A stretch of 64,000 nucleotides of DNA from Bacteroidales bacterium (GCA_030681475.1 JAUXWT010000071.1:33347-97346), one strand, 5' to 3'; shown: positions 4,755-24,634, counted from the stretch's first letter. Numbers and translations are program-made. The notes: generated from the sequence alone by a model not told the origin.

Positions 4755-7700
4755 ATGAGTTTCTTTGTAAACCTTGTCAGGTTAAATTTGCAGTGGTTTG
4801 GCCGGATGTCGGACTCGTTAATCTTTTTATCTGTTTTTTTATGTGTGTTTCACTCAACGAGTGGATTTCCCCAAGTATTCACCAAGGTAAACTCGGGAAC
4901 CAAGTCGGATATAAGGCAGTTGAAAATTACCCCGGACGGAACCGGGTATTTTCTTACAGATAAAATATTTGCATTTGATGGAAAGTCCTGGAAAAAGGCT
5001 GATTTTCCCGTTGCAGGGTTAATATCCACTTTCGACGCGATTTCCATGGATAATATATGGTACAGCACTTCACTTGAAACAAGTACCTCCATGTTATACC
5101 ATTATCATAACGGGGTCACTGAAACTATTCATGCCCCGTTTGCCAACGACATCACTTCCGTTTTTTTCCAGTCGGAAAACCTTGTGTTTTTTGCAAGTTA
5201 TTCAGATGTAGTAATATATAAAAATCGTGAATTTGAGAAATTCATTCCGGCAGTAATGTGCGGAATCATTAAAGCCATTTACGGGACCGGCAGGGACAAA
5301 TTCTGGGTTTTAAACCAGTCAAATAAGATGTTTTTCTGCAAAAACGGTCAATTTTTAAACATATTCCCTGATAAAACAGTGAATGATTTTCAATTTCTCA
5401 ACACGGATCATGGTTTTTTATTGACAGACGAGGCAATTATTGAGATCCAAGGTATGAACATCATCAGGGAATTTCGGAATAACTTGTTAAAGGATGTCAA
5501 AAAAATCCAATTACACGGGGATGAGATATGGGTAATTGGCACAGGCGGTCTTATCCTGATCCTGAAAGACGGATTATTCCGCCGGATAAATTATGAAGGC
5601 AAAGAAAATCTGAATGCACTTGGAACTGATGGTAATGGTGACATCTGGATCGCAGGGGATAACGGTTTATTACTATACAGCGGAAAGAAACATTTTCCCG
5701 CCTACGATGAATATTATCCCGGGTTTTCAGCTCAAAAATTAACATCCTTTGGGATTGTTGTGGACAATGAATATGGAGTGGCGTTTGCAGATTTTAACGG
5801 CGATAATAAAACAGATATTTACACGGTTTGTATCTCTGACCCTAATAAACTGTTCATCAATCAAACCAATCCGAAACTTGATGTTCCCCTCGCAAATAAT
5901 TTCAGGGAGGAGGCCGTGAAACGAGGGGCTTCCGGGTTGGTAATGGAAAAAGATATCCTGATTCCCTCGGAGTTGAAATTGGGTGTTTCGGTTGCTGATG
6001 TTGACAACGATGGAGATGAGGATATTTACCTTTCCTCATTGAACAGCCATAATAAATTATTGCTTAATAATGGCCATGGTTATTTCCGTAATGTTTCAAA
6101 CCAGAATGCCAGGGCCTGCGAGAATGTTAATCGGTGCAACGCTGCTGCATTTGCTGATGTTGACCTGGATGGCGACCTTGATTTATTCGTTACCAGTGAG
6201 CAGGGTCCCAACAGGTTTTTTATCAATGACGGAAACGGATATTTCACTGATGTTACTGAAACGGCAGGGGTTGCATCATCAGGGGCAGGTATGTGTGCCA
6301 CTTTTGGCGATGTGAACGATGACGGTTATCCCGATCTGGTTGTTACCTTTTGGTATCCGTCAAATAAAATCTATCTCAACGAATCGCGGAATGGTCAGGT
6401 GAAGTTTCGCGATATCACATTATTAACTGATCTCCCGAAAGCCGGTCCGGCAAAAAGCAATGCCGTGGTATTGGCCGACGTTAACAACGATGGACATCCC
6501 GACCTGTTCATCGCGAACCGTCATGCGGTCAACAGATTATATCTGAACGACGGAAAAGGCATTTTCAGGGATGAAACATCCCGGTATTTTGAAAACAAGG
6601 TTTATCTTACCAACGGAGCCGTATTTGCCGATTTCGATCTCGATGGTTATCAGGATTTGTATATAACCAACGTCGGAGACAATGTGATGTACAAGAATAT
6701 CGATGGTAAATATTTCGAAGATGTAACCGGTAAATTCGGCGCAGAAATGAGTGGATATTGTACCGGAAGCGCTGTTGGAGATGTTGACAACGATGGGGAT
6801 GTAGATCTTTATGCCGCAAATTATATCAATGGCAGCAGCATGATGTTCCTTAACAAAATGGAAAAAAGGAATTCTGTCACCTTTAAACTCCAGGGTACCC
6901 GATCGAACAGGAACGCAATAGGTGCAAAAATCTACTTATATGTAGTAAGGCCGGAAAGATCAGGCGATTCACTAGCCGGTTTCCGTGAAATTAGAGGAGG
7001 AGGAGGGTATTGCTCCATTTCAGCAAAGGAGGCGGTTTTTTCGCTCACCCCGGAATTGAACTATTATGCAGTAGTCTTGTTTCCAGCCTCAGGTATCCGT
7101 ATTAAAATAGATAAGATCACAAATGGATCAGTGATCCGTGTAAGTGAGGAAACAGGATTTGCAGCATATAAGACGTTATCAGAAAAAGCCTTGGTCAGGT
7201 TCCTCACCGACAGGGAAATCCAGTTGGAAATAGCTAAATATGTTGCTGTTTTATTGATCCTGTTAATCTATCTGTATATTCAGCGCAGGGGTTCCAGACA
7301 AATGATTGTCACGAGGTTTGTGTTGTGTCTTGCATTATTTATCATTTTCTCACTGGTTAACCAGTTTTTCCTGTTCAGCTCCTCAATTCTGTTATTTTCC
7401 CTGGTACCATCACTTGCAGTCATGGGATTGATTATCCTTCATCTGGTTACCGAAAGGATCCTGCTGAAGCGACAGGCAGAGCGGGACAAAAAGGAATTAA
7501 GAGAGAAAATTTCCCGTGATCTGCATGACGACCTTGCCTCCACACTGGGAAGTATCTCCATATATTCAAATACGTTAAAAGGAATGACGGATGCTACACA
7601 TCCGACTTTTAAAAAGCTCTCCGTTAAAATTGCCGAATTGACACAGACAGCTCTACAGTCGATCACTGACATTATCTGGATGACAGCGCCACGAAATGAT

Positions 7701-8105
7701 TCCCTGCAGCACCTGCTGTCGAAAGCAAGCGCCATGATGTTTGATGTGTTAACAGACAACAACATCAGGTTCAAGGAAAAAATTGAGCTTCCCGAACAGG
7801 ATATCATCTTGCGAGACAATATCCGCCATGATACTTTTCTCATCCTGAAGGAGGCGTTAAATAATGTGATCCGGCATGCCTCACCACAAATGGTAACCCT
7901 GAGTGCCTGTTTGTTTGATAAAATCTGCAAAATCCAGCTTACCGATGATGGTCAGGGATTCAGGGAGGATGAATTGCTACTCATGGATTTTCATGGAAAT
8001 GGATTGATCAATATGCACAGAAGGGCAGCGGATTCAGGAATTGAGTTACAGGTTCATTCAACCCCCGGTTTTGGCAGCCGAATTGAAATTTCTTTCCGAA
8101 TTTGA
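4755..8105 (+). CDS. sensor histidine kinase (HisKA_3/NarX-LiaS type) with a giant extracytoplasmic propeller + FG-GAP/VCBS + UnbV/ASPIC-like domain
   Basis: The N-terminal ~320 aa look like a propeller. About 6 FG-GAP/VCBS repeats follow (FADFNGDNKTDIY, VADVDNDGDEDIY, FADVDLDGDLDLF, FGDVNDDGYPDLV, LADVNNDGHPDLF, FADFDLDGYQDLY, VGDVDNDGDVDLY). Next comes an ASPIC/UnbV-like segment (NRNAIGAKIYLY...REIRGGGGYCS) and about 3 TM helices. The kinase core shows an H-box (RDLHDDLASTLGSI), N-box (LKEALNNVIRHA), DDGQGF and GNGLINM. The start may be the Met at 4806. Confidence 0.8.
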   Translation: MSFFVNLVRLNLQWFGRMSDSLIFLSVFLCVFHSTSGFPQVFTKVNSGTKSDIRQLKITPDGTGYFLTDKIFAFDGKSWKKADFPVAGLISTFDAISMDNIWYSTSLETSTSMLYHYHNGVTETIHAPFANDITSVFFQSENLVFFASYSDVVIYKNREFEKFIPAVMCGIIKAIYGTGRDKFWVLNQSNKMFFCKNGQFLNIFPDKTVNDFQFLNTDHGFLLTDEAIIEIQGMNIIREFRNNLLKDVKKIQLHGDEIWVIGTGGLILILKDGLFRRINYEGKENLNALGTDGNGDIWIAGDNGLLLYSGKKHFPAYDEYYPGFSAQKLTSFGIVVDNEYGVAFADFNGDNKTDIYTVCISDPNKLFINQTNPKLDVPLANNFREEAVKRGASGLVMEKDILIPSELKLGVSVADVDNDGDEDIYLSSLNSHNKLLLNNGHGYFRNVSNQNARACENVNRCNAAAFADVDLDGDLDLFVTSEQGPNRFFINDGNGYFTDVTETAGVASSGAGMCATFGDVNDDGYPDLVVTFWYPSNKIYLNESRNGQVKFRDITLLTDLPKAGPAKSNAVVLADVNNDGHPDLFIANRHAVNRLYLNDGKGIFRDETSRYFENKVYLTNGAVFADFDLDGYQDLYITNVGDNVMYKNIDGKYFEDVTGKFGAEMSGYCTGSAVGDVDNDGDVDLYAANYINGSSMMFLNKMEKRNSVTFKLQGTRSNRNAIGAKIYLYVVRPERSGDSLAGFREIRGGGGYCSISAKEAVFSLTPELNYYAVVLFPASGIRIKIDKITNGSVIRVSEETGFAAYKTLSEKALVRFLTDREIQLEIAKYVAVLLILLIYLYIQRRGSRQMIVTRFVLCLALFIIFSLVNQFFLFSSSILLFSLVPSLAVMGLIILHLVTERILLKRQAERDKKELREKISRDLHDDLASTLGSISIYSNTLKGMTDATHPTFKKLSVKIAELTQTALQSITDIIWMTAPRNDSLQHLLSKASAMMFDVLTDNNIRFKEKIELPEQDIILRDNIRHDTFLILKEALNNVIRHASPQMVTLSACLFDKICKIQLTDDGQGFREDELLLMDFHGNGLINMHRRAADSGIELQVHSTPGFGSRIEISFRI

Positions 8106-8164: not shown

Positions 8165-8794
8165 ATGGAAATTACAATAGGGATCGTAGAGGACCATTCT
8201 GAATTCAGAAATAGCCTTGTATTTCTTATATCTTCGTTTACAGCATACCAGGTTGTTTGGGCGGTAGGGTCGGTTAGGGAGGCAATGGACAATAAAGAAC
8301 CGGTCGACATCATTCTCCTGGACATTAATCTTCCGAATCTTTCCGGAATTCAGGGAATTCCATTGTTCAAGGCAAAGTTCCCCGGCCAGAAGATCATCAT
8401 GCTGACCATTCAGGATGATGAAGAGAGTATTCTGAGCGCTATCAAAGCAGGTGCAGATGGGTATATCCTGAAAAAAACCAGCCCGCAAAAGATACTTGAA
8501 GCAATACAACAGGTGTATGAAGGCGGAGCAGCGCTGACTCCAATGGTTGCAAAACAAGTACTTGCGCTGTTTAAACCGAAAAAAGCGGTCAAAGTCACAC
8601 ATACATCCCTGACCCCACGCGAAAAAGAGATATTGACCCTTATAACGCAAGGAATGAGTACTTTGGTGATCGCTGAAACATTGTTTATCAGTATACAAAC
8701 GGTAAGAAACCATATCAAGAGCATTTATGAGAAACTTCATGTTCATTCCAAGGCTCATGCTGTTGCTATAGCGCTGAAGGAAAAAATAGTTTGA
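8165..8794 (+). CDS. response regulator, NarL/LuxR family (REC + HTH_LuxR)
   Basis: The receiver shows ILLDINLP (phospho-Asp context) and LTIQDDEESILSAIKAGADGYILK. The C-terminal LTPREKEILTLITQGMSTLVIAETLFISIQTVRNHIKSIYEKL is a LuxR-type HTH. It lies directly downstream of the HisKA_3 kinase. Confidence 0.9.
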   Translation: MEITIGIVEDHSEFRNSLVFLISSFTAYQVVWAVGSVREAMDNKEPVDIILLDINLPNLSGIQGIPLFKAKFPGQKIIMLTIQDDEESILSAIKAGADGYILKKTSPQKILEAIQQVYEGGAALTPMVAKQVLALFKPKKAVKVTHTSLTPREKEILTLITQGMSTLVIAETLFISIQTVRNHIKSIYEKLHVHSKAHAVAIALKEKIV

Positions 8795-8944: not shown

Positions 8945-11900
8945 ATGAAAAATCATTTACTTTTTAGGACAAAAAGACTTTTTAATAAAGCCTTATTGCT
9001 GGGAATTATTTCCACGTTTTTAATGAGCTTTGGGTCATTAACTGCACAGGTTAATTTCACACAAACCCTCAATGCCGATTTCAATAAAGGCGTTCTGAAC
9101 AATGTGATCGTAGCCAGTGATAACATATCCTTGCAATTTGGAGCCAGCGATGTTGGCTCCTGGCTCACAACGACTGTACTTCCGCAGACTTTGGCAGGAC
9201 ACAGGGCAGTTTCGTGGAATGACAAATATGCATACATCGTTGGAGGACACAATGGTACGAACTATATGAATACCGTGTATCTTGCAACTATTCAATCAGG
9301 TGGCATCACCAGTTGGACTGCCCAGAATCCCCTGCCCGTTGCATTACGTGATCCCGCAGTAGTGATCGGGACCAACACGATCTATGTCATGGGCGGACGT
9401 GACGGATCGCAGGTGTACAACACCATTTACTATGCCGCGCTCAATACCAATGGAACAATCGGACCCTGGCAGACTTCAGCAGTTACCCTGCCCGCCAATC
9501 GCTGGGGGCATACGGCTACCTATATGATGGGCTACATCTATGTGATCGGGGGTTCCGGTTCAATGACGGAGAATACTGCGTTGAATACTGTCTATTACAC
9601 AAAGGTCAACGCCTTGAATACTCTGTCGTCCTTTACTGCAGGTACAAACCTCACCACAGCGCGTAACCGTCACAGCGCCGTTACATACAAAAACAAACTG
9701 TATGTACTTGGAGGATATGACAATGCGGGCACGAAATCAAGTGCGGTTTATATCGCCACGCCAGCATTGAACGGATCAACCGGAGCATGGGCAGCTGGAA
9801 CCAGTTTACCGGTGGCCATCAGCAACCATTCGTCTGTTGTTACCAACGGTGTTATTACGGTAATGGCAGGTGCGGTCGGCGCGACATTAAGCAATACCGT
9901 CTATTATGCCAATGGTGATGCCGGGTCTCTTGTTTGGTCAACCTCCGGGAATGTGATGTATGATTTTACCAAAGATGGTTCTGCATTTACAGGAAATGGC
10001 CAGGCTTACTACACAGGTGGTGTAAACCTGTCGGCAACTCCGATTATCAACTGCCGGTATGCGAACATGGTTTTAACAACAAATTATATTGGCACCGGGA
10101 TCTTCGTTTCAGTTCCGTTTTATGAACTTGGTGCCGAAAGATGGATCAACTCTCTTACGTTCAACAAAACCTATACACCTCCTGCAAATTTACAGGTATC
10201 ATACAGAACTGCAGGGAATGATGGAATCTGGGGTGACTGGACCACACTGGTCACAGCCTCGCCCATCACGGTTAATCAGACTAAACAATACCTGCAATAT
10301 GCCCTGGTGATGACCGGGTCAACCACCTTTAATTCGACTTTTCATGACATGACGCTTACGACTCCGGGAACACAGATCTCCGGCAATCTTAATGCAATGA
10401 CTACCTTCACCGCGGTGCTTAGCCCGTATTGGGCAACAGGGGATATTTCATTTACAGCCGGCACCCATACTTTCGAGGCAGGCACAACAATCCTGTTCCT
10501 GCCAGAGACCGGGCTGACAGTAGGCCAGGCTAATGTGATCTGCAACGGAACGGTTACCGACTCCGTGAAATTCCTCTCCTATACCAATGAAACCGGGCAG
10601 TGGGACGGGATTTACTTTGATCCTAACAGCGACAACGGAGTTTCATCACAATTCTACTACACAGTGATCGCCAACGCGGGATTTGGCGCCAACAATGCGA
10701 ACTTATATTGCAACTCAACAAATGAGCCCCTGCTTTCGCGTTGCAGTATCCGGAATGCCGATGGAAACGGCATCCGGCTGAACTCAGCGCACATCAGCAT
10801 TCAGAACTCTGTTCTCAGGGGTAACTCAGAGAATGGTCTTTACCTGAATCTTTCCAATCCAACGCTGGTTTCTTCGGCGATGTCGTACAACGGCGAGGCA
10901 GGGGTTTACCTGACAGCGTCAACCTCGGTTCCTAATTTCAGCAGCGGAAGTTCCACGATCGACCATAACCTATATGGATTACATTATCCCTCTCCCAACC
11001 TGACGTTTGATCAACCCAGCGGTTCACCGACAATCACCTTAAACACATATAACGGCATTGCAATTGATGGCGGTGATATCTCTTCAGACCAGCACTGGAA
11101 TTCGATTCCTTATGATTACATTTTATTGGGGACTGTCAGGGTTGGTCAATATGCTGGTGCATGCCGGTTAACTATCGAACCGGGGAATACGATTAAATCA
11201 CTGGCCGGGGTTCAGCTACAGATCGGAATTGCATCGTCGTACGGTGGTGAATTGTATGCACTCGGATCAGCAGGAAACCAGATCACCTTTACTTCACATA
11301 ATGGACTTGCCGGCGGCTGGGGGGGGATCTATTTTACCGATTGGAGTGATAACTGGGGAGGACATTCCCAACTGGATTATTGTATCATCGAAAAAGGGAA
11401 TGACTACAACTATTTATCGGTGAATACCGTGCAACCCGACCTGATCAACAATACGATCATACGTAATGCTGTGCTTGACGGGGCAAGATATAACAATGCA
11501 TCCGGCAGTATAACCAATTGCCAGTTTCTTACAAACGGCAGGTACCCGCTTTATTTCATGAATCCAGAAGCCAACCCGGTACACACCGGAAATATCTATA
11601 CCGGGAATGGGATCAACCGGATCACCCTTTCTGGCGGGACATATTCTTTTGACCGCACTTATAACTATGAAGTTATACCATATTATGTACTGGACGATAT
11701 AATAATGGCAAAGTACGCATCGACATGCAGGTTAACACTTGCCCCCTCGGTAGCCATGGAATTTGCCCCGGGCAAGAAATTACAATTAGGTTCCACGAGT
11801 TCCTACGGTGGTGAAATATATGCCGTTGGTACAGCATCTGAAAGGATCTTCCTCAGGGCTTACAACCTATTAAACGGAGGCTGGGAGGGGATCCATTTTA

Positions 11901-14110
11901 CAACCTGGAATGATAACTGGGGTGGTGTATCAACCATGGAGTACGTTACCATCAACCATGGGAATGCCCAGGATATTCTCATTGAGGGATCTTCGCAACC
12001 AACTTTGAATTATTGTAACATACAAAAATCGGCAGGTCATGGTATTGTATTATACCAGTCAAATCCAACTATTACGAATTGTATTTTTACCCAAATAGCT
12101 CAATATCCGATTAAATTCAAAGACTGGACCTGCAATGCCTACCTTAGAAATAATTCTTATACCTCAAACGGGCTCAACTATATAGCCATGTCGGGAGGCA
12201 GTTACGATGCAAACCGTACTGTGTACTTCGATAATATCCCTTATCATGTGCTTGGCGATATCGTTATGGCGCTATACGCCAACCATGCCCGGTTAACCGT
12301 GCAACCAGGTGTCACCATGACCTTTGATCCGGGAGTTAAATTGCAGCTCGGATGGCCAACTTCATATGGCGGAGATCTTTGGGCGGAAGGGAAGTCTGAC
12401 AGCCTTATCACTTTCAAGCCATATAACAATACTGCCGGAGGATGGGCCGGAATTTATTTCAATACGTACAATGATAACTGGAGCGGGACCTCGTCAATGA
12501 AGTATTGCGTGGTAGAAAAAGGTGCAGACTATAATATGAGATGTGAAAACTCTGCCCAGCCGACAATCGACCACAGCACCTTTACCCAATCAACTGGCAA
12601 TGGCTTGAACCTTTCAAGTTCCAGCCTGACGATCATGAATTCAGATTTTACAAATAATACCACGAATGGTATTTTTCTGGAGGGAACAGGAACAAACACA
12701 ATTGGCAATACCGCTGCATTTACTTGTAACTTTTACAACAATGGAACTTATGCGTTGTATAATAATTCAACATCCATTGTCAATGCAAGGTATAATTACT
12801 GGGGAACAGGAGATTCAACCATGGTCGGGTTCAAAATATATGACAAATCGGACAATTCTGCCAAAGGCAAGGTCAATTTCAGCCCATTTGCACAGGTTCC
12901 GTCTTTGTTTACAACCAATACGGTAATGAGTGGTACCGTGAAATATGCAAATATCGCGGCCAGCCCGATGAAAAACGCATCCATGGTGATCAAGGATTTC
13001 AGCAATACTACCATTACTTCTACAACATCAAACACCTCAGGCGTATATGCTTTCCCGTCATTCCCTTCCGGAAATTACACCATGACAATTACTCCGGTAT
13101 CACCATCACCTCCATGGGCGCCATGCAACTCAACGGATGCCCTGGCGATCCTGAACCATTTTGCCCAGATCGCACCACTTGCCGGGATAAATCTCGCCGG
13201 AGCCGATGTCAACTTCAGTCATACAATTAACGGGACCGACGCCCTGTTTGTCATGAAACGATATACCTTCATGATCCCCACTTTCCCTGCAGGAGATTAC
13301 CTGCACCACACCAGCGCCTTGACCGTGAACGGGAGTAATGTGACAAATACGCTGCAAATGCTCGCTTTTGGCGATGTAAATGCATCTTTTGTACCAGCGA
13401 AAAAGAGCGGAAATTCTGTCGGACTGGTTCATGAGGGCTCGCTTCTTGTTGAATCCTATGCGGAATTTGATTTCCCGGTCAGGTTAAAATCTGCCATGCA
13501 GGTTGGCGCCATTTCACTCGGATTTTATTACCCTGAGCAATATCTTGAAATCACCGGAGCCCAATTGGCCAATGGCGTCGGCGGGTTCTCCTGGACTGCA
13601 ATCGATGGGTTGTTCCGGATGGGGTGGTGTGACATGAGCCCTCTTAACATCAATGATGATGAAATTGTGGTTATCCTGAAGATGAAGGCCAAAGATCTGT
13701 CTGGCCTTGTAACAGGCATCGCGCTGGATATTTTCGAGTATTCGGAGTTTGCCGATGCACTCGCAACACCCAATGACCTGGAGATCGTTTCGATCCCCAC
13801 AATCAACACCACGATTACCGGAATCAGTCCGGCAAAAGGCTTTGACGGGTTGTCTGTGTATCCCAATCCGGTATCGCAAAATTCAGTGATAGCGTTTTCA
13901 CTTGAAAACCCTGCAACAGTTCGGATTTCATTGCTGAATGTCGTCGGAACCCAAATCATGGAAATTGCCAACAGCGAGTTTTCATCCGGCAACCATAGAA
14001 TAGGATTGAAGGCTGCAAGTCTTAAAGAAGGTATTTATTTATTAAAAATCGAGCGCACAAGCAACGGACAAACCATATCCGGCATGATCAAGTTAGTAGT
14101 ATCTCACTAA
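8945..14110 (+). CDS. 1721-aa secreted multidomain protein: Kelch repeats, parallel beta-helix modules, CarboxypepD_reg-like, dockerin-like, cohesin-like, T9SS CTD
   Basis: It has a signal peptide and Kelch-type repeats (YIVGGHNG, IYVMGGRDG, IYVIGGSGS, LYVLGGYDNAG). PbH1-like repeats follow (NGIRLNSAHISIQNSVLRGNSENGLYL), then three ~188-aa modules. A YNYWGTGDS...GKVNFSPF motif and a CarboxypepD_reg-like segment (SGTVKY...GVYAFPSFPSGNYTMTI) come next. A degenerate dockerin-like segment (NSTDALAILNHF...ADVNFSHTINGTDALFVMKRY) precedes a cohesin-like segment (FDFPVRLKSAMQVGAISLGFYYPEQYLEI). The T9SS CTD is LSVYPNPVSQNSVIAF...GIYLLKI. Confidence 0.7.
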   Translation: MKNHLLFRTKRLFNKALLLGIISTFLMSFGSLTAQVNFTQTLNADFNKGVLNNVIVASDNISLQFGASDVGSWLTTTVLPQTLAGHRAVSWNDKYAYIVGGHNGTNYMNTVYLATIQSGGITSWTAQNPLPVALRDPAVVIGTNTIYVMGGRDGSQVYNTIYYAALNTNGTIGPWQTSAVTLPANRWGHTATYMMGYIYVIGGSGSMTENTALNTVYYTKVNALNTLSSFTAGTNLTTARNRHSAVTYKNKLYVLGGYDNAGTKSSAVYIATPALNGSTGAWAAGTSLPVAISNHSSVVTNGVITVMAGAVGATLSNTVYYANGDAGSLVWSTSGNVMYDFTKDGSAFTGNGQAYYTGGVNLSATPIINCRYANMVLTTNYIGTGIFVSVPFYELGAERWINSLTFNKTYTPPANLQVSYRTAGNDGIWGDWTTLVTASPITVNQTKQYLQYALVMTGSTTFNSTFHDMTLTTPGTQISGNLNAMTTFTAVLSPYWATGDISFTAGTHTFEAGTTILFLPETGLTVGQANVICNGTVTDSVKFLSYTNETGQWDGIYFDPNSDNGVSSQFYYTVIANAGFGANNANLYCNSTNEPLLSRCSIRNADGNGIRLNSAHISIQNSVLRGNSENGLYLNLSNPTLVSSAMSYNGEAGVYLTASTSVPNFSSGSSTIDHNLYGLHYPSPNLTFDQPSGSPTITLNTYNGIAIDGGDISSDQHWNSIPYDYILLGTVRVGQYAGACRLTIEPGNTIKSLAGVQLQIGIASSYGGELYALGSAGNQITFTSHNGLAGGWGGIYFTDWSDNWGGHSQLDYCIIEKGNDYNYLSVNTVQPDLINNTIIRNAVLDGARYNNASGSITNCQFLTNGRYPLYFMNPEANPVHTGNIYTGNGINRITLSGGTYSFDRTYNYEVIPYYVLDDIIMAKYASTCRLTLAPSVAMEFAPGKKLQLGSTSSYGGEIYAVGTASERIFLRAYNLLNGGWEGIHFTTWNDNWGGVSTMEYVTINHGNAQDILIEGSSQPTLNYCNIQKSAGHGIVLYQSNPTITNCIFTQIAQYPIKFKDWTCNAYLRNNSYTSNGLNYIAMSGGSYDANRTVYFDNIPYHVLGDIVMALYANHARLTVQPGVTMTFDPGVKLQLGWPTSYGGDLWAEGKSDSLITFKPYNNTAGGWAGIYFNTYNDNWSGTSSMKYCVVEKGADYNMRCENSAQPTIDHSTFTQSTGNGLNLSSSSLTIMNSDFTNNTTNGIFLEGTGTNTIGNTAAFTCNFYNNGTYALYNNSTSIVNARYNYWGTGDSTMVGFKIYDKSDNSAKGKVNFSPFAQVPSLFTTNTVMSGTVKYANIAASPMKNASMVIKDFSNTTITSTTSNTSGVYAFPSFPSGNYTMTITPVSPSPPWAPCNSTDALAILNHFAQIAPLAGINLAGADVNFSHTINGTDALFVMKRYTFMIPTFPAGDYLHHTSALTVNGSNVTNTLQMLAFGDVNASFVPAKKSGNSVGLVHEGSLLVESYAEFDFPVRLKSAMQVGAISLGFYYPEQYLEITGAQLANGVGGFSWTAIDGLFRMGWCDMSPLNINDDEIVVILKMKAKDLSGLVTGIALDIFEYSEFADALATPNDLEIVSIPTINTTITGISPAKGFDGLSVYPNPVSQNSVIAFSLENPATVRISLLNVVGTQIMEIANSEFSSGNHRIGLKAASLKEGIYLLKIERTSNGQTISGMIKLVVSH
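11040..12700. repeat. three tandem ~565-bp intragenic modules (beta-helix cap units)
   Basis: The recurring protein pattern is G(G/T)Y...IPY.(V/I)L.D....(A/Y)...RLT(I/L/V).PG......G..LQ(I/L)G...SYGG(E/D)(L/I)(Y/W)A.G......F....N...GGW.GI(Y/H)F....DNW(G/S)G.S...YC(I/V).EKG. Landmarks fall at about 11053, 11607 and 12173. The boundaries are approximate. Confidence 0.55.
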
Positions 14111-14123
14111 AAATCTCTGCACT

Positions 14124-17100
14124 ATGAAGACACTGATTTTAAAAATACTACCACTGTTGTTCCTGATCGTTTGGCCGGGTATCCTGATGTCCCAAACGAT
14201 CACGACAACGGCCGGCTCCGTAACAAGTTGTCCCGGTCAGATCGTGGTCCCGGTCAACGTGACCGATTGTAACGGGATCGGAGCGATCTCGCTGATTCTG
14301 AATTTTGATGACACAAAGTTGATATACAATGGTTATCAAAATCTGAACAGCGCTCTGACTGTCGGATTGCTGATCATCAATTCTGTAGCAAACAAGGTGG
14401 TCATCAGTTGGGCCAACACCACCGCGGCGAACCTTGGCAACAGTACCATGGTTGAACTGAAATTCAACGCGGCGCCGAGTACGACAAGCCTGGCCTGGGA
14501 CCTGACACCCGGAAACTGTGAGTACAGCGATGTATTGGGCAACGTCCTTCTTGCCACTTTTACAAATGGTACAGCAACAATAAATTCACCGCCGGAGATA
14601 AACATTCAGCCTGTCGATAAAACCGCACTGGTCGGGCAGAATACATCTTTTACCGTTTCGGCAACAGGAACAGGGTTAGCGTACCTGTGGCAGATCAGTA
14701 CCAACGGAGGGGCAAACTGGAGCGATCTGACAAACGGAGCACCCTATTCCGGGGTAACCTCTCCCACTCTGACCATTACAAACGTTCTGTTCGCCTACAA
14801 CGGCTATCAATACCGTTGCAGGCTTACGGGCACTTGTACGCCGGTAATTTATACCAACGAGGTCACGCTGTCAGTCATCGATCCGATTACGACAACATTA
14901 CCGACAGCAAGTTTCTGTCCGGGAAATATCATCGTTCCTGTAACGGTGACAAATTTCACCGGGGTTGCCACTTTTTCATTGACCTTTTCCTACAATACGT
15001 CCTGCTTGAACTACAACGGTTTTCAAAATTTGAATGGAACACTTTCAGGAGGTACGTTTGTGGCCAATGCAGCAGACGGCAAGGTGTATATGACCTGGTC
15101 ATCCACCACCCCGGTCACTTTTGGAGACGGGACACTGGTGGAGCTCCAGTTTGCTGCAACCACGGGAACAAGCAGCCTGGTGTGGGATGTGGCAACTGCC
15201 GGCAACTGTGAATACTCAGCCCTGAGCGGGTCAAGCATCACGGCTGTCTTTGTCAACGGGAATGAGACCATATACGGACTGCCGGCTGTTACCGCGCACC
15301 CGTTAAATAAAATCATAGCAAAGGGACAGAACACCACTTTCAGCATATCAGCTACCGGATCTGGACTTACCTATTTATGGCAGGTTAGTACAAATGGCGG
15401 TGCAAATTTCAATGATCTGGCGAACGGAGGATATTACTCAGGTGTAACTTCAACAACGCTGACCATTACCAGCGCACAACTTGTATTAAGCGGAAACCAG
15501 TATCGGTGCAGGGTAATAGGCACCTGTTCGCCCGTTGCTTTTTCTAACCCGGGGGTACTGATAGTTTTACCTAATGTTATTACCACATGTGGCACAGTTA
15601 CAGGTTGTCCGGGGCAAAGCATCATCCCGGTCAATGTAACCGATTTTATCGGCGTCGCCTCCTTTTCCATGACCTTGAACTACAACCCCTCCGTCTTGAC
15701 CTATGCCGGATACCAGCTCTTTAACGCAGCGCTATCTGGAGGAAGTTTTGCCATCAATGCATCAGGGGGAAAGATTTACCTGACATGGTCAAGTACAACA
15801 GCGGTCACCCTTACCACCGGGGCATTGCTCATAGAGTTGAAGTTTGATGGTGTTTCTGGGTCAAGCCCCTTGACCTGGGATACACCGACTCCCGGTAACT
15901 GCGAATATAGTGACCTCAACGGACAGGTAATCTTTTCAACATGGAACAACGGGAATGTAACCATCAACGTATCGCCTGTAATTATTACACATCCTGCAAA
16001 TAAGACCATTTATGCCTCAGGCAGTACCTCGTTTTCGGTTACAGCAACCGGTACCGGACTCGGATATTTGTGGCAGGTAAGTACCGATGGAGGTACAAAC
16101 TGGATGAACCTCACAAATTCATCACCATACTCAGGTGTAACTACCTCCACATTAACCATAAACCCTGCTTCAACTGGTATGAATGGCTACCAATACCGTT
16201 GTAAAGTTTCAGGTAATTGTTCGTTGTATATTTCAACAAACCTTTTACTGCAAGATGATACAGTAGCCAACGGACAGACGTATTGCTACAACGCGACTCA
16301 GGCCATTACGGTTGCCGGTAACGGAACCAAATTTATTGTTCAGAATGGTGGCAGTGCCTCCATGGTCGCCGGACAAAAAATCAGTTATCTGCCCGGAACC
16401 ATTGTTAATTCAGGCGGATATATGCATGGATCCATCACAACGACAGGACAGTATTGCATTGCGCAACCACTTATATCTAATTCTGCCCAACTGGTTGTGA
16501 CACAGGTGCCAGTAACCACCTCATCCGGTACAATAACGAATTCCTGCACCGGGAATCTGATTATTCCGGTCAGCGTGTCGAACTGTCTGAATGTCGGAAG
16601 TATATCCCTGACAATGATCTTTGATACCACGAAGATGACTTTTGAAGGGTACCAGGGGGTCAACACTGAACTTTCAGGCGGATTTCTGGTTGTCAATCGT
16701 GCGAGTAACAGGGTAATATTGTCATGGGCATCAACAACGGCCGCCAACGTCGGATCCGGAGTCTTGATTCAATACAGGTTTAAAGCCAACTCAGGAATTT
16801 CGTCAACCATATCCTGGGACACGCAAACCGCGGGGGCTTGTGAATATGCTGACATCAACGGGACTGTCATCACATCATTTTACAACACCAGTAACATCAC
16901 GATCCTTACAAATGCGCTGATCGTTAATGCCGGTTCGGATTTGATCAAGACAGGAAGCCCTGTTCAACTCAACGGCTCCGCAACCGGAGCAACGACGCCA
17001 TACACCTGGTTATGGTCACCGGCAGGGTCTTTAAATAACCCGGCAATACCAAATCCGATGGCCTCACCTGTGGTAACCACCGCGTACACGTTGACTGTAA

Positions 17101-17687
17101 CTGCCAACAATGGCTGTGTTGGTACCGATGTGATGAATGTCATGGTGGATGAGGTTCCCACAAACCTGGTACTTCAGGATATCACGATTCCCAATGGAGT
17201 CAGTAACTGTTACAATGCTTTACAGACCATTAACGTTGCTGGCGGCGGAACAATTTTCATTGTTGAAAATGGAGGCAGCGCAGTTATGATCGCAGGGCTT
17301 AAAATTAATTATCTTCCCGGAACAAAGGTTTACCCGGGCGGATACCTTCATGGATACATCACCACAACCGGAGATTATTGCAATACACTCCTTGCCCCTG
17401 AGATCCTGACCATTGAGGAAAATTCTCATGCTCCCACGGATGGGACCATATTCAGGATTTACCCAAACCCGACTACCGGCCAGTTCAATATTGTACTGAA
17501 AGAGAACGATTTACCCGGAAATGTCTATGTTACGGTGTATGGTTCCAGAGGTGAAATAATACTTAGTGATGTCATGATGCGTGATCTTCACAAAGGATTC
17601 TCACTTTCCGGCCAACCGTCAGGGCTGTATTTTGTAAGGGTTGTTAGCGGGAATAAGGGTTTTACAGGAAAACTGATCAAACAGTAA
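14124..17687 (+). CDS. 1187-aa scaffoldin-like secreted protein: 4 cohesin-like modules interleaved with 3 Ig-like modules, 2 copies of a novel ~70-aa module, T9SS CTD
   Basis: It has a signal peptide. The cohesin-like core CPGQ.(I/V).(V/I)PV.V(T/S)(D/N)(C/F)..(I/V)(G/A).(I/F)S(L/M) occurs 4 times. Three Ig-like modules match P..K....GQNT.F.(V/I)SATG.GL.YLWQ(I/V)ST(N/D)GG.N...L.N...YSGVT..TLTI....L..NGYQYRC. The duplicated module is LQD.T(V/I).NG...CYNA.Q.I.VAG.GT.FIV.NGGSA.M(V/I)AG.KI.YLPGT.V..GGY.HG.ITTTG.YC. The CTD is FRIYPNPTTGQFNIVL...GLYFVRVV. Confidence 0.7.
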   Translation: MKTLILKILPLLFLIVWPGILMSQTITTTAGSVTSCPGQIVVPVNVTDCNGIGAISLILNFDDTKLIYNGYQNLNSALTVGLLIINSVANKVVISWANTTAANLGNSTMVELKFNAAPSTTSLAWDLTPGNCEYSDVLGNVLLATFTNGTATINSPPEINIQPVDKTALVGQNTSFTVSATGTGLAYLWQISTNGGANWSDLTNGAPYSGVTSPTLTITNVLFAYNGYQYRCRLTGTCTPVIYTNEVTLSVIDPITTTLPTASFCPGNIIVPVTVTNFTGVATFSLTFSYNTSCLNYNGFQNLNGTLSGGTFVANAADGKVYMTWSSTTPVTFGDGTLVELQFAATTGTSSLVWDVATAGNCEYSALSGSSITAVFVNGNETIYGLPAVTAHPLNKIIAKGQNTTFSISATGSGLTYLWQVSTNGGANFNDLANGGYYSGVTSTTLTITSAQLVLSGNQYRCRVIGTCSPVAFSNPGVLIVLPNVITTCGTVTGCPGQSIIPVNVTDFIGVASFSMTLNYNPSVLTYAGYQLFNAALSGGSFAINASGGKIYLTWSSTTAVTLTTGALLIELKFDGVSGSSPLTWDTPTPGNCEYSDLNGQVIFSTWNNGNVTINVSPVIITHPANKTIYASGSTSFSVTATGTGLGYLWQVSTDGGTNWMNLTNSSPYSGVTTSTLTINPASTGMNGYQYRCKVSGNCSLYISTNLLLQDDTVANGQTYCYNATQAITVAGNGTKFIVQNGGSASMVAGQKISYLPGTIVNSGGYMHGSITTTGQYCIAQPLISNSAQLVVTQVPVTTSSGTITNSCTGNLIIPVSVSNCLNVGSISLTMIFDTTKMTFEGYQGVNTELSGGFLVVNRASNRVILSWASTTAANVGSGVLIQYRFKANSGISSTISWDTQTAGACEYADINGTVITSFYNTSNITILTNALIVNAGSDLIKTGSPVQLNGSATGATTPYTWLWSPAGSLNNPAIPNPMASPVVTTAYTLTVTANNGCVGTDVMNVMVDEVPTNLVLQDITIPNGVSNCYNALQTINVAGGGTIFIVENGGSAVMIAGLKINYLPGTKVYPGGYLHGYITTTGDYCNTLLAPEILTIEENSHAPTDGTIFRIYPNPTTGQFNIVLKENDLPGNVYVTVYGSRGEIILSDVMMRDLHKGFSLSGQPSGLYFVRVVSGNKGFTGKLIKQ
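14190..16240. repeat. three tandem ~690-bp cohesin-like + Ig-like units
   Basis: The conserved PV(N/T)VT(D/N) codons recur at about 14250, 14940 and 15625. A fourth cohesin-like copy sits at about 16570 after an insertion. The copies are diverged at DNA level and conserved at protein level. Confidence 0.65.
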
Positions 17688-18391: not shown

Positions 18392-21300
18392 GTGTCAGGA
18401 AAATTTCATCCGATACCTCTTCCGGGCCTCTTAAGATTAACACTTGCCGAAATCAGTCAAAACAGATTTATGGGAATTCCCGGTAGTTTGTTCTACCGGC
18501 CGCACCCTACCGATCGTTTTGGATTTACGAGATATGGACGATACCTTGAAACGCCCATCGGAGTGGCTGCAGGGCCTCACACACAGTTGGCGCTTAACAT
18601 AGTTGCCGCCTGGCTTTGCGGTGCCCGGTATATTGAGTTAAAGACCGTCCAGACCCTGGATGAACTCGAAGTCTCAAAACCCTGCATCGACATGCAGGAC
18701 GAGGGTTACAACTGTGAGTGGTCCCAGGAACTTAAAGTGAATGAGTCCTTTGCTGAGTACCTCAACGCCTGGATCATCATCCATATCCTTCATATTGAAT
18801 TGGGATTCACCGGATCAGTGGGAACGCTTTTTAACATGAGTGTGGGGTACAACCTTGAGGGGATCATGAATGCCAATGTCCAATGGTTTTTTGACCGGAT
18901 GCTGGATTGTAGTACAGAACTGGATAAAGCGAGAGAATCCATCAGGGGGATTTACCCTGGTATTGATAAGATAGATATCCCATCGAAAATATCGGATCAT
19001 GTTACCTTGAGCACCATGCATGGATGTCCGCCCGACGAGATTGAAAGGATCGGGCTATATCTGATCAGCGAAAAGAAATTACATACCACAATTAAATTAA
19101 ATCCAACATTACTTGGACCGGAAGTAATTCGCGGGTTGCTGAACACCAGGTTTGGCTTTTCCACTGTAGTTCCTGACACCGCTTTTGAACATGACCTGAA
19201 ATATCCGGATGCAATACAGATCATTGAATCGCTGGGGTTGGCTTCAGATAAAAACGGATTACAGTTTGGCGTAAAGCTTACCAACACCCTGGAATGTAAA
19301 AACAATAAAAATATTTTCGGGGACGGGGAGACCATGATGTACATGAGCGGCCGGGCGCTACATCCCATAAGCGTATTGCTGGCAAGGAAAATGCAGAATG
19401 ACATGGGGGGCAGCCTTGATATCTCTTTTTCTGCAGGTGCGGATTGTTTTAACGTTGCCGATGTGCTGGACTGTGGTATGAGACCGGTGACCGTGTGCAG
19501 CGATTTGCTGAAGCCCGGCGGATACGGGCGTTTATTTCAATATATTGAAAACCTTCGTTCACACAACCAGGTCAACAAGTCAGCTCTGCAAAACCTGAAT
19601 AATTATGCTGACAGGGTTGTCGATAATCCGGGTTATTATAAGCATTTATTGTCCGATCCCTCTATCAAGACTTCAAGGGAACTTGGTTGGTTTGACTGTA
19701 TTCATGCTCCGTGTACAGATACCTGTCCGACAAATCAGGACATTCCGGAATATATGCATCATACAGCGCATGATGATATTCCCGCGGCATTTGATACAAT
19801 TTTCATGACCAATCCCTTTCCATCAGTTACAGGAATGGTATGCGACCATTTGTGTGAGTTGAAATGCACCCGGGTAAATTTTGACAATGCATTGCATATC
19901 AGAGAGATCAAGAGGTTTGTGGCGGAAAACACCCCACCCCCATCCCCACCCCCAAAAGGAGAGGGGCAAGTGGCCCGGGCAGCCATTATCGGGGCTGGCC
20001 CGGCTGGTTTATCCTGTGGATGGTACTTACGCAATGCTGGTTTTGAGGTGGATATCTTTGAACAGAAAAATGTTGCCGGGGGCATGGTTTCTGCAGCCAT
20101 TCCCTCATTCCGGCTTACCGGCGAGGCCATTGATAACGATATACAACGGATACTGGCATCAGGGATTCATCTGCATGATAATCAATATATTGACGCCGCA
20201 CGTTTTAAGCTGCTCCAACGTGATTACGACCTCATTTTCCTGGCTGCAGGCGCTCAACAATCAATCAGACTGAATATCGAAGGAATAGACTCAAGCGGGG
20301 TGATTGATCCGCTGGAGTTTTTATTTGATGTCAGGCAAAATAAGACAACCAGGTTGGGTCAGCACGTGATCATCATTGGAGGTGGGAATACAGCCATGGA
20401 TTCCGCCCGCACTGCATTCCGGATGGTAGGAAAAGAGGGGAGTGTCACCATCGTTTACCGTCGCACGGTTAAAGAAATGCCCGCCGATCATGGTGAGATC
20501 AAAGCAGTGCAGGAAGAGGGGATCCGTATCATTGAGCTAGCCAATCCCGTTCGTGTTCAATCGGTCGGGGGCAGGGTTACCGGACTGTTATGTTCACGCA
20601 ACATCCTGACCTTGAATGGAAATGATGACAGGCCCTCCCCACGCGCCATCCCTGGTTCCGAATTTGAAATTTCATGCGATACCATTATTCCGGCCATTGG
20701 CCAGCAGATGGCGGTTGATTTTCTTGAGCATGATCAACTTCGTCCGGTTCAGGGAAGTTATAAAACAGGAGTTCCCAAACTTTACATCGGCGGAGATGCC
20801 ATGCGTGGCGCCTCGACAGCAATCAATGCCATCGCCGACGGCCGCAAAGCCGCAGAAGAAATCATAGCACAAACGGCGCACCTGCTCCCCTCCCCTGCAA
20901 GGGGAGGGGTCGAGTGTGGGGTAGAAGATATCCCCCAACTGATGCATCGCAAAGCGATCAGGGAATATGGAATTCATCCGGCAGAAACCGCCCTGGACAG
21001 GAGAAGGAATTTCGATCTGGTCATGTCATCCTTTACAGCAGAACAGGCAAAGACAGAGGCAGCACGGTGTTTGCGATGTGATGTGATCTGCAACGTATGT
21101 GTCTCGGTTTGCCCGAACCTGGCCAACTTCGGATACCGGGTCGAACCAGTGCGTTATTCGCTGGAAAAGGCAGTTTTAAATGAGGATGGCTCCATCGTAA
21201 TAGAAAAGGATAAGGTTTTTAAGGTTGATCAGCCATTTCAGATCCTTAACATCCGTGATCTGTGCAATGAATGTGGTAATTGTACTACATTTTGCCCGAC

Positions 21301-21628
21301 CAGCGGCAGGCCATTCGCCGATAAGCCCGGTATATTTCTTTCTGTGAAATCGTTGAACGAAGTGGGTACAGGCTTTCTTTTTAGTCAGCTTCCGGGAAAA
21401 CAGGCGCTGATTTATAGGGACAAGGAGAGTGTAAAAACTTTGAGTTTGATGGATGACAAATATGTGTATGAGACAGACCAGGTCACAGCGGTTATCAATG
21501 CAAAAGATTTCGCACTGCTTGATGTAAAGTTTCTGACACCGTGTGTTAAAGAATTCCACTTTGAATTTGCTGCAGAAATGAGTATAATATTGAATGGTGC
21601 AATGCAAATAACAGTGAATATTGAATAA
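18392..21628 (+). CDS. ygfK: YgfK-type Fe-S/flavin oxidoreductase (annotated 'putative selenate reductase subunit YgfK'; DPD-like TIM barrel + GltD-like FAD/NAD(P) domain + 2x[4Fe-4S])
   Basis: The N-terminus PIPLPGLL...FMGIPGSLFY...ETPIGVAAGPHTQLALNIVAAWLCGARYIELKTVQTLDELEVSKPCIDMQDEGYNCEWSQE aligns with E. coli YgfK as I recall it. It carries AIIGAGPAGLSCG (GxGxxG), IIIGGGNTAMD, and the motifs CLRCDVICNVCVSVCPN and CNECGNCTTFCP. At 1078 aa it compares with about 1030 aa in E. coli. The start codon is GTG. Confidence 0.88.
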   Translation: MSGKFHPIPLPGLLRLTLAEISQNRFMGIPGSLFYRPHPTDRFGFTRYGRYLETPIGVAAGPHTQLALNIVAAWLCGARYIELKTVQTLDELEVSKPCIDMQDEGYNCEWSQELKVNESFAEYLNAWIIIHILHIELGFTGSVGTLFNMSVGYNLEGIMNANVQWFFDRMLDCSTELDKARESIRGIYPGIDKIDIPSKISDHVTLSTMHGCPPDEIERIGLYLISEKKLHTTIKLNPTLLGPEVIRGLLNTRFGFSTVVPDTAFEHDLKYPDAIQIIESLGLASDKNGLQFGVKLTNTLECKNNKNIFGDGETMMYMSGRALHPISVLLARKMQNDMGGSLDISFSAGADCFNVADVLDCGMRPVTVCSDLLKPGGYGRLFQYIENLRSHNQVNKSALQNLNNYADRVVDNPGYYKHLLSDPSIKTSRELGWFDCIHAPCTDTCPTNQDIPEYMHHTAHDDIPAAFDTIFMTNPFPSVTGMVCDHLCELKCTRVNFDNALHIREIKRFVAENTPPPSPPPKGEGQVARAAIIGAGPAGLSCGWYLRNAGFEVDIFEQKNVAGGMVSAAIPSFRLTGEAIDNDIQRILASGIHLHDNQYIDAARFKLLQRDYDLIFLAAGAQQSIRLNIEGIDSSGVIDPLEFLFDVRQNKTTRLGQHVIIIGGGNTAMDSARTAFRMVGKEGSVTIVYRRTVKEMPADHGEIKAVQEEGIRIIELANPVRVQSVGGRVTGLLCSRNILTLNGNDDRPSPRAIPGSEFEISCDTIIPAIGQQMAVDFLEHDQLRPVQGSYKTGVPKLYIGGDAMRGASTAINAIADGRKAAEEIIAQTAHLLPSPARGGVECGVEDIPQLMHRKAIREYGIHPAETALDRRRNFDLVMSSFTAEQAKTEAARCLRCDVICNVCVSVCPNLANFGYRVEPVRYSLEKAVLNEDGSIVIEKDKVFKVDQPFQILNIRDLCNECGNCTTFCPTSGRPFADKPGIFLSVKSLNEVGTGFLFSQLPGKQALIYRDKESVKTLSLMDDKYVYETDQVTAVINAKDFALLDVKFLTPCVKEFHFEFAAEMSIILNGAMQITVNIE
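19931..19973. repeat. GC-rich palindromic-element copy inserted in frame in ygfK (encodes TPPPSPPPKGEGQV)
   Basis: ACCCCACCCCCATCCCCACCCCCAAAAGGAGAGGGGCAAGTGG is related to the reverse complement of 20881-20925 and to the intergenic copy at 39048-39095. It lies immediately 5' of the GxGxxG codons. Confidence 0.6.
20881..20925. repeat. GC-rich palindromic-element copy inserted in frame in ygfK (encodes LLPSPARGGVECGV)
   Basis: The core CCCCTCCCC-TGCAA-GGGGAGGGG (20887-20909) is a perfect 9-bp GC stem. It is followed by TCGAGTGTGGGGTA, which resembles the TCAGGGGTTGAGGTA arm of the copy at 39048-39095. Confidence 0.65.
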
Positions 21629-21669
21629 AAAACATTGAAAAGTGAATAAATAACAGTGAATAGTTATGA
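21607..21669. repeat. 7-nt-period tandem array spanning the ygfK stop and the next ATG
   Basis: The units read aataaca gtgaata ttgaata aaaaaca ttgaaaa gtgaata aataaca gtgaata gttatga. The 14-mer AATAACAGTGAATA occurs twice (21607-21620 and 21649-21662). Confidence 0.6.
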
Positions 21670-23138: not shown

Positions 23139-23142
23139 AATG

Positions 23143-23293: not shown

Positions 23294-23328
23294 ATTAATG
23301 AGAAAATAATTTCAGAAATATTTTAAAC

Positions 23329-24633: not shown

Positions 24634-24634
24634 T

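Follow-up and report, generated by a model that had tools for sequence, protein, structure and literature searches.

A stretch of DNA of 64,000 nucleotides from an uncultured Bacteroidales bacterium (GCA_030681475.1, JAUXWT010000071.1:33347-97346; hereafter the window) carries two adjacent genes, here called P1 and P2, for a Kelch/beta-helix protein of 1,721 amino acids (aa) and a protein of 1,187 aa with four cohesins. Both products end in the C-terminal domain (CTD) typical of type IX secretion system (T9SS) cargo. The question raised by this locus is whether such cargo is assembled at the cell surface through cohesins and dockerins, as an initial annotation of the DNA had proposed. We found that the modules are what they had been taken for, that the two genes are inherited together, and that the CTD of P2 alternates with a dockerin in related genomes. 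Our preferred reading, to which we give about an even chance, is that the P1 and P2 genes are cotranscribed and that their products, both T9SS cargo, come together at the cell surface via noncellulosomal cohesin-dockerin contacts.

Modules of the two proteins

By self-comparison, P2 consists of a signal peptide, Coh1, Ig1, Coh2, Ig2, Coh3, Ig3, a module termed X1, Coh4, a PKD module, a second X module (X2), and the CTD, with four homologous cohesins and three Ig modules. The Pfam Cohesin family (PF00963) matched P2 in four stretches with 78.2 bits (Pfam cut-off, 24.1), Ig_3 gave three matches, and PKD and K319L-like_PKD matched weakly. Because Coh4 scanned alone against Pfam had no match, we settled its identity by fold modelling. 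An AlphaFold2 (AF2) model of P2 aa 792 to 1187, built with 38 orthologs, had a predicted local distance difference test score (pLDDT) of 86.6, and the best matches of Coh4 in the PDB, searched with Foldseek, were all cohesins. CohA2 from Clostridium acetobutylicum (6kgf, 6kgd, and 6kgc) aligned with a template modelling (TM) score of 0.76 to 0.79, a root mean square deviation of 2.3 Å, and 22% identity; 2xdh from Archaeoglobus fulgidus aligned with a TM score of 0.81, versus 0.53 to 0.62 for type II and type III cohesins. The modelled fold of Coh4 is thus best fit by type I or noncellulosomal cohesins. A profile of the P2-type cohesins found only cohesins in the PDB, all weakly (best, 2xdh, E = 0.0018), and phmmer with whole P1 and whole P2 against the same database gave Kelch, Ig, and CTD matches and no cohesin. 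The scaffoldin-like architecture suggested for P2 holds: P2 is a noncatalytic, scaffoldin-like protein with four type-I-like cohesins on Ig spacers.

Two further features of P2 were noted. The P2-type cohesins (window positions 14196 to 16904) have a near-invariant cysteine pair, in CPG near the start and in GNCEY near the end, that is probably a disulfide. The X module, 75 to 80 aa long and present twice, follows the pattern QDxTVxNGxxxCYNAxQTIxVAGxG... and has no Pfam match; its model has about nine short beta strands (pLDDT, 85 to 93), and it resembles, below threshold, the NCBIfam entry NF045639, "3-coathanger stack" (E = 0.054). X1 occurs only in P2 orthologs of 1,177 to 1,191 aa.

P1 is laid out as a signal peptide, a Kelch propeller, four beta-helix units, and a tail of CarboxypepD_reg, dockerin, cohesin, and T9SS CTD. 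The sequence of the Kelch and beta-helix payload suggests glycan binding or processing, or adhesion; its matches in Pfam and the PDB gave no catalytic assignment. Pfam Dockerin_1 (PF00404; cut-off, 22.9 bits) matched aa 1395 to 1439, the peptide already quoted in the initial annotation, and aligned positions 11 to 55 of the 57 in the profile; the score was 24.8 bits with full-length P1 as query and 30.0 bits when this segment was scanned by itself, and relatives reached up to 35.9 bits. The PF00963 matches in P2 and the PF00404 match in P1 were therefore both above cut-off. When a profile of 21 orthologous dockerins was compared with the PDB, it matched the solved dockerins 1ohz_B, 2mte, and 1daq with E values of 1e-6 (1ohz_B) to 4e-6 (CelS), and the conserved loop aligned onto the Ca loops of solved type I dockerins. 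The ligands of this second loop in P1 are D1421, N1423, S1425, N1429, and D1432 (EF-hand positions 1, 3, 5, 9, and 12), and the second repeat reads D-V-N-x-S-x-x-[VI]-N-x-T-D in all orthologs. Loop 1 is vestigial: where ligands 1, 3, and 5 should sit, P1 has P, P, and W, and Pro/Trp recur there in every aligned ortholog; the first repeat keeps the helix NSTDALxILNHF, including the Ser-Thr pair. Both dockerin helices are present in P1 (NSTDALAILNHF and GTDALFVMKRY). A type I dockerin has two EF-hand loops, and in P1 loop 2 alone has ligands. Because only this second loop keeps them, the P1 dockerin is, judging from its sequence, a one-Ca-site variant. Calling it degenerate was accurate, and the one Ca site is intact by sequence.

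The tail of P1 (aa 1324 to 1721) was modelled with AF2 from 37 sequences (pLDDT, 87.7). In the model, a sandwich is followed by three helices, then by a beta-hairpin and a beta-sandwich, and finally by the CTD; the dockerin helices lie at model residues 73 to 83, 91 to 95, and 107 to 117, with pLDDT above 90 (secondary structure only). The module that follows the dockerin had no Pfam match when scanned alone. In Foldseek, it matched 5nrm_A (TM, 0.74), 2xdh (0.71), 1g1k (0.67), and also 6kgf. A hidden Markov model (HMM) of the P1-cohesin family detected all four P2 cohesins with an E value of 3.7e-15, in a small search space comprising the open reading frames (ORFs) of the window and of six loci. 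From the model, the P1 module next to the CTD is a cohesin fold. Taken together, Pfam (PF00404 and PF18962) and the cohesin fold model bear out the dockerin, cohesin, and CTD that had been read in P1, and Pfam, TIGR04183, self-comparison, and the Coh4 model do the same for the four cohesins, Ig modules, and CTD of P2. The predicted structures are closest to cohesins and not to an unrelated beta-sandwich, and the profile and fold matches are far stronger than chance would produce. As the annotation had also said, the function would not be classical cellulosomal: Pfam found no glycoside hydrolase in P1 or P2.

The dockerin is the most conserved module of P1, with a pairwise identity of 0.73 to 0.74 versus about 0.6 for the body. 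Compared with the window proteins, conservation per module is nearly uniform and thus uninformative.

The gene pair, the end of P2, and the tail of P1

P1 is identical to the NCBI protein MDP1622830.1 ("right-handed parallel beta-helix repeat-containing protein") and P2 to MDP1622831.1, auto-annotated as "cohesin domain-containing protein"; both are from a 244-kb contig in a metagenome-assembled genome (MAG) of an uncultured Bacteroidales bacterium, and the assembly of run SRR13727517 contains the same P1/P2 stretch. The stop codon of P1 and the ATG of P2 are separated by 13 nt, and a scan of this gap showed no terminator-like site. An AT-rich spacer of 150 nt lies 5' of P1, and a convergent deaminase gene downstream of P2 closes the unit. 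A promoter and terminator scan gave consensus noise only, with a sigma-70 consensus that does not cover Bacteroidetes promoters. The N termini of both translations are hydrophobic, as in Sec signals. By sequence, P1 and P2 are predicted Sec- and T9SS-signalled proteins from one operon.

We scanned one genome per GTDB species and annotated the hits with our own HMMs, which yielded 45 loci from about 40 genomes, all of them MAGs. The carriers are labelled nearly all Bacteroidales, Lentimicrobiaceae, Prolixibacteraceae, or "Draconibacterium". All 42 P1-like genes (42/42) encode a dockerin and a cohesin, and 41 of the 42 encode a CTD as well. A P2-like gene directly follows the P1-like gene in 42/42 loci with a spacing of 78 to 366 nt and nearly always has four cohesins; among the 120 best P2 homologs, this number is almost invariant. 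Gene-by-gene inspection of relatives on longer contigs showed the same order, P1 and then P2, in every one, and the flanking genes varied among several inspected loci. The pair is strictly co-inherited in about 40 related species. The 13-nt gap and the adjacency conserved in 42/42 loci give good support for a functional link between the two genes.

Some of these loci deserve a separate remark. A pair in a bin labelled Alphaproteobacteria (L031; SACF01000005.1) is probably mis-binned. Some MAGs have two pairs (L016 and L019 on one contig, L017 and L018 on one contig, and L021 and L050 in one MAG), the second being either a tandem or a divergent copy (35% identity, three cohesins); these are usable for finding specificity-determining residues. 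Loci from three MAG assemblies (L002, L005/L049, and L051) have both genes in many pieces, apparently through frameshifts, and so give rise to spurious short homologs. One of these, P0029, was rejected as a free-standing anchor of cohesin and CTD; with its start 2 nt behind the upstream gene, it is probably a piece split off by a frameshift.

The P2 orthologs have two alternative endings. At 33 classifiable genome loci, the C terminus is X plus CTD in 20 and a two-loop dockerin in 13; among the 120 best P2 homologs, the respective numbers are at least 50 and at least 41. In a Lentimicrobium ortholog, for example, the two-loop tail is DVNQDGVIDTAD...DVNGDGIIDTAD. Tails of the DVNQDG type, scanned alone, matched Pfam Dockerin_1 nearly end to end with 24 to 29 bits; tails of another subclass (DGNGDK...DFNMN) have no Pfam match, although their Asp/Asn positions are retained. 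Orthologs of the CTD type always have X ahead of the CTD, and those of the dockerin type have no X. The signal peptides of the two types are nearly identical, neither with a lipobox.

Additional genes ending in a two-loop dockerin occur within 10 kb at 11 of the 13 dockerin-type loci and at none of the 20 CTD-type loci (0/20). Those inspected encode a 2,740-aa Peptidase_S8/GEVED protein, BNR_2 and Exo_endo_phos proteins, and a 960-aa protein without assigned function. The three that are complete and full length have Sec signals, and none of the inspected proteins has a CTD. A homolog search with the two-loop profile gave mostly short fragments and said little about cargo; the proteins named here were identified at the loci themselves. 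The alternation would make no sense unless the dockerin were another means of attachment, and without a docking role it is hard to explain. On the sequence evidence, the two-loop dockerin is expected to be an alternative means of attachment for the same scaffold, and the CTD-proximal cohesin, present in every P1 ortholog, would be its obvious socket. Examples of dockerin-type P2 orthologs are L007 10001-13366 and L008 10001-13480, and dockerin-tailed neighbour genes are found at L007 1-3962 and 15713-16555, L008 13835-15493, L005 15953-17902, and L003 2289-5171.

The tail of P1 is widespread. When a profile of the one-loop dockerin was run with HMMER exhaustively against 1.84 billion cluster representatives, it had 2,682 matches at an E value of 1e-3 or less and 822, end to end, at 1e-10 or less. 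A full cohesin follows the dockerin in 102 of the best 147, after a median gap of 4 residues (10 or fewer in 93 of the 102); a CTD was detected in 77 of these dockerin-cohesin proteins, and a tail of CTD size was present in another 22. Another 37 of the best 147 end about 40 residues past the dockerin, with dockerin and hairpin only and without cohesin or CTD, some of them being fragments. A subtilase and a PKD-cohesin adaptor, both complete and both ending in the dockerin, stand alone among housekeeping genes. A dockerin that is terminal on complete, CTD-less proteins can work there only in trans. Only 22 of the best 147 have a P1-like body. The other payloads include an M4 thermolysin-like peptidase and fn3/phosphatase-like, Laminin_G_3, GEVED, and PKD proteins, and CarboxypepD_reg usually lies just before the dockerin, in P1 as in most other proteins with this cassette. 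The wider family thus includes anchors (cohesin-CTD), cargo (payload-dockerin), adaptors (cohesin-dockerin), and scaffolds (four cohesins). Since the dockerin-cohesin-CTD tail is generic, the P1 dockerin is not necessarily dedicated to P2.

Proteins with cohesin and CTD only were seen as well. P0033 (L006 10001-10828) has a signal peptide, a P1-type cohesin, and a CTD and is alone among unrelated genes on an 835-kb contig; L053 9986-10684 encodes the same module pair. These proteins look like minimal anchoring scaffoldins.

Possible wiring of the modules

In the wiring that we favor, P2 would present its four cohesins on Ig spacers and be attached by its own CTD. P1 would be the payload, with the one-loop dockerin as a Ca-dependent plug and the CTD-proximal cohesin, of a second type, as a socket. 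The plug would fit the cohesins of P2, with up to four P1 per P2, and the socket would anchor a different dockerin, which in sister lineages would be the two-loop type at the end of the P2 ortholog and on neighbouring enzymes. We favor this arrangement for three reasons: in known scaffoldins of the CipA type, the dockerin of a chain does not fit the cohesins of that chain; with this wiring, the 1:1 gene pair would be reciprocal at loci of the dockerin type; and at loci of the CTD type, P2 has no dockerin next to it other than that of P1. The P1 cohesin evolves faster exactly where the heterogeneous two-loop dockerins occur (0.49 versus 0.65), and at the sequence level this pattern and the high conservation of the dockerin are consistent with the favored wiring.

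Several observations weigh against direct docking of P1 on P2. In a mirror-tree comparison (partial Mantel), the dockerin correlated with the P2 cohesins at r = 0.57 and with the Ig control at r = 0.59; no dockerin-cohesin pair was singled out, the control being as high as the cohesins. Family HMM scans found one dockerin (P1) for five cohesins (one in P1, four in P2) in the whole window. As P1 and P2 each carry a CTD, attachment does not require docking in either case, and T9SS type A cargo can be released instead of anchored. Relaxed constraint on the P1 cohesin was not seen in CTD-type loci; if anything, the opposite was. With a tail this generic, the adjacency of the genes could reflect cofunction without direct docking. 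Finally, dockerin, hairpin, and cohesin form nearly one continuous high-confidence block in AF2, which would be compatible with a dockerin packing in cis.

This last point leads to a tail that is sufficient to itself. The P1 dockerin would bind the CTD-proximal cohesin of P1, either as a cis clasp that makes a rigid pedestal before the CTD or as a head-to-tail daisy chain of P1 copies, and the cohesins of P2 would bind something else or cassette-bearing proteins in general. The regular succession of dockerin and cohesin at short distance in the wider family agrees with this, as does the AF2 model, in which pLDDT is high over all three parts apart from a brief drop at model residues 161 to 170. 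The cassette is also found on many payloads, with no P2-like neighbour examined there. However, the modules also occur separately: P0328 and P0312, both complete, are among the 37 with a terminal dockerin and no cohesin, a dockerin is missing from at least one cohesin-CTD protein, and about 140 aa are inserted between dockerin and cohesin in a few proteins. A self-binding tail also leaves the strict adjacency of P1 and P2 unexplained, and it runs against the general knowledge that dockerins of CipA-type scaffoldins do not bind cohesins of their own chain. We consider it rather unlikely.

Alternatively, nothing docks. The modules would be structural spacers and Ca-stabilized linkers in two cofunctioning T9SS adhesins or fibril proteins, and the pair would be kept because both proteins are needed for the same surface function. 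The function of noncellulosomal cohesins and dockerins, according to what Peer et al. reportedly wrote in 2009, is largely unknown. The nearly uniform conservation over the modules, the loss of the first Ca loop, and the mirror-tree result, in which specific covariation was not seen, would all suit such a role. It is hard to square with the alternation of CTD and dockerin and with the clustering of dockerin-tailed genes at dockerin-type loci only. Terminal dockerins on peptidases are the classical layout of cargo, the dockerin is the best conserved module of P1, and the closest structural relative, 2xdh, comes from an organism whose cohesin and dockerin bind well. On balance, we think a pair without docking unlikely.

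A larger scheme can be drawn around docking, one that we regard as improbable in its entirety. The P1/P2 pair would be the CTD-anchored form of a two-specificity cohesin-dockerin network on T9SS cargo, in which proteins with a Sec signal and a dockerin tail attach to CTD-bearing cohesin proteins and are possibly carried across the outer membrane by them, docking in the periplasm and then passing the T9SS translocon as passengers. In sister lineages, the attached proteins would be the four-cohesin scaffoldin, peptidases, an endonuclease/exonuclease/phosphatase (EEP) nuclease or phosphatase, and BNR proteins.

A classical cellulosome for plant cell wall degradation, which the position of a multicohesin protein beside a dockerin-bearing one might evoke, was rejected as very improbable: Pfam found no glycoside hydrolase, carbohydrate-binding module (CBM), S-layer homology (SLH) module, or sortase (LPXTG) signal in P1 or P2, 64 kb hold a single dockerin, the host is a diderm Bacteroidales with T9SS CTDs on both proteins, and the dockerin-tailed relatives are peptidases, EEP nuclease/phosphatase, BNR, PKD, and lectin-like proteins.

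Related systems, surroundings of the locus, and meaning

The comparison with clostridial scaffoldins (CipA of Clostridium thermocellum, the anchors OlpB and SdbA, and OlpA and OlpC) shows both likeness and distance. Shared are the multiple type-I-like cohesins, the dockerin built of EF-hand loop and helix, two sequence types each of cohesin and dockerin in the wider family, single-cohesin anchors, and Foldseek TM scores of 0.66 to 0.75 to the cohesins of CipA, OlpA, and OlpC. In contrast, P1 and P2 belong to a diderm Bacteroidales, are attached by T9SS CTDs instead of SLH modules or sortase, and lack glycoside hydrolases and CBMs. They form a strict 1:1 gene pair, whereas the clostridial systems have one scaffoldin and dozens of enzymes, and in the P1 dockerin a single Ca loop is combined with a beta-hairpin extension.

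The A. fulgidus cohesin 2xdh, from a noncellulolytic organism, is among the best fold matches of both the P1 cohesin and Coh4 and is the best sequence match of the P2-type profile. Proteins of A. fulgidus carry cohesin and dockerin in the same chain. The A. fulgidus pair is a functional binder that has been used in engineered display and in designer cellulosomes. Unlike P1/P2, this system is archaeal, has no T9SS and no four-cohesin partner gene, and uses a canonical two-loop dockerin. The cohesin-FN3 modules of Clostridium perfringens GH84C (2w1n), the top Foldseek match of the P1 tail, are likewise noncellulosomal and link large secreted multidomain proteins, but in a Gram-positive organism, with glycoside hydrolases and toxins as payloads and with neither a multicohesin scaffoldin nor T9SS. 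Peer et al. are said to have described in 2009 noncellulosomal cohesins and dockerins, often on the same polypeptide, in noncellulolytic contexts. With both modules in P1 and no cellulolytic context, P1 and P2 belong with this group.

For the dockerin, the closest precedent is the one-loop group-2 type of Ruminococcus flavefaciens, which binds cohesins (PMC12270676). Group-2 dockerins are physically truncated, whereas the P1 dockerin keeps both helices, has lost only the ligands of loop 1, and carries a hairpin extension; organism and anchoring differ as well. At the level of the system, the closest precedent is 'Ca. Stygibacter' (Cloacimonadota), for which a protein resembling a scaffoldin, with cohesins in tandem and a T9SS-type CTD, was inferred from sequence only, with dockerin-tailed peptidases and enzymes in the genome (Williams et al. 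2021; PMC8542988). That protein belongs to another phylum, has 3,755 aa with CBM2 and CBM3, and lacks a conserved Kelch/beta-helix partner gene, and neither a dockerin-cohesin-CTD cassette nor an alternation of CTD and dockerin was reported (PMC8542988).

The coordinates of P1, P2, their modules, and the adjacent two-component system are listed in the table.

Table. Features of the P1/P2 locus, in window positions, with the residues covered and the basis of each call
Feature	Position	Strand	Residues and basis
Adjacent two-component system, upstream of P1	4755..8794	+	Pfam domains of two genes
P1 gene	8945..14110	+	1,721 aa, NCBI MDP1622830.1; ORF call, Pfam, self-comparison
P1 Kelch beta-propeller	9182..9964	+	aa 80-340; Pfam Kelch families 91.9 bits; PDB Kelch matches E 4e-14
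P1 four right-handed beta-helix units	10466..12739	+	aa 508-1265; Beta_helix 66.9 bits (4 stretches), NosD, internal repeats
P1 CarboxypepD_reg-like beta-sandwich	12926..13093	+	aa 1328-1383; Pfam
P1 dockerin, three predicted helices	13112..13282	+	aa 1390-1446; Pfam Dockerin_1, profile vs PDB, model, alignment
Beta-hairpin extension of P1 dockerin (predicted)	13283..13369	+	aa 1447-1475; model
P1 cohesin-fold module adjoining CTD (predicted)	13421..13810	+	aa 1493-1622; AF2 and Foldseek, HMM relation to P2 cohesins
P1 T9SS type A CTD	13856..14107	+	aa 1638-1721; PF18962 36.3 bits, TIGR04183 27.4 bits
P2 gene	14124..17687	+	1,187 aa, NCBI MDP1622831.1; ORF call
P2 cohesin 1	14196..14582	+	aa 25-153; Pfam 26.1 bits scanned alone
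P2 Ig-like spacer 1	14589..14843	+	aa 156-240; Pfam Ig_3, self-comparison
P2 cohesin 2	14871..15278	+	aa 250-385; best Pfam stretch, self-comparison
P2 Ig-like spacer 2	15285..15533	+	aa 388-470; self-comparison
P2 cohesin 3	15567..15965	+	aa 482-614; Pfam 31.9 bits scanned alone
P2 Ig-like spacer 3	15972..16223	+	aa 617-700; self-comparison
P2 X1 module	16230..16463	+	aa 703-780; no Pfam family; self-comparison
P2 cohesin 4	16509..16904	+	aa 796-927; phmmer vs Coh2 1e-29, AF2/Foldseek
P2 PKD-like module	16917..17147	+	aa 932-1008; weak Pfam PKD / K319L-like_PKD
P2 X2 module, X1 homolog	17154..17384	+	aa 1011-1087; self-comparison, model
P2 T9SS type A CTD	17457..17684	+	aa 1112-1187; PF18962 42.3 bits, TIGR04183 40.1 bits

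The two-component system consists of a sensor histidine kinase (4755-8105) with five FG-GAP_3 repeats, HisKA_3, and HATPase_c and of a LuxR/GerE-type response regulator (8165-8794) directly upstream of P1. It is a possible candidate for a regulator of the pair. Orthologous dockerin-type loci have a 163-aa LytTR-only protein at its place, so this regulator is not conserved.

Elsewhere in the window, positions 3116-4660 encode a third T9SS cargo protein, of 514 aa, with three Kre9_KNH Ig-like domains and a CTD. The ORF at 7-2478 (823 aa) has no Pfam match and a weak NCBIfam likeness to the heparin-sulfate lyase HepC (E = 8e-4, far below cut-off). A 1,048-aa Type ISP restriction-modification-like protein (Type_ISP_C, N6_Mtase, and Eco57I) is encoded at 27327-30473 on the minus strand, in the stretch of lowest GC content of the window (0.415), and its gene may have been horizontally acquired. 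Positions 18392-27274 and 40109-44002 encode a dihydropyrimidine-dehydrogenase-like Fe-S flavoprotein, two PALP enzymes, and two molybdoenzymes of the xanthine-dehydrogenase family, a cluster that probably serves the breakdown of purines or pyrimidines and is syntenic with L009 in its first part.

Natural cohesin-dockerin assemblies are understood almost entirely from the cellulosomes and amylosomes of Gram-positive bacteria. A 2025 review has Gram-negative bacteria only as engineered display hosts, and according to a study of Bacteroidetes cellulases, Bacteroidetes genomes are typically without cohesins and dockerins. In the literature, we found no paper on cohesin-dockerin systems of Bacteroidales or Lentimicrobium or on a combination of dockerin and T9SS of this kind. 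The bare observation of cohesins is not new because P2 had already been auto-annotated as a cohesin protein; the conserved P1/P2 pair, the dockerin-cohesin-CTD cassette and its spread, and the alternation of CTD and dockerin are. Should binding follow the cellulosomal pattern, organisms with a T9SS would build modular, noncovalent assemblies at their surface from peptidases, proteins that bind glycans, and other enzymes, and the passage of CTD-less dockerin proteins across the outer membrane would become a directly testable question. The one-loop dockerin with its hairpin and its cohesins could also serve as new orthogonal parts for designer scaffolds and for surface display in Gram-negative bacteria.

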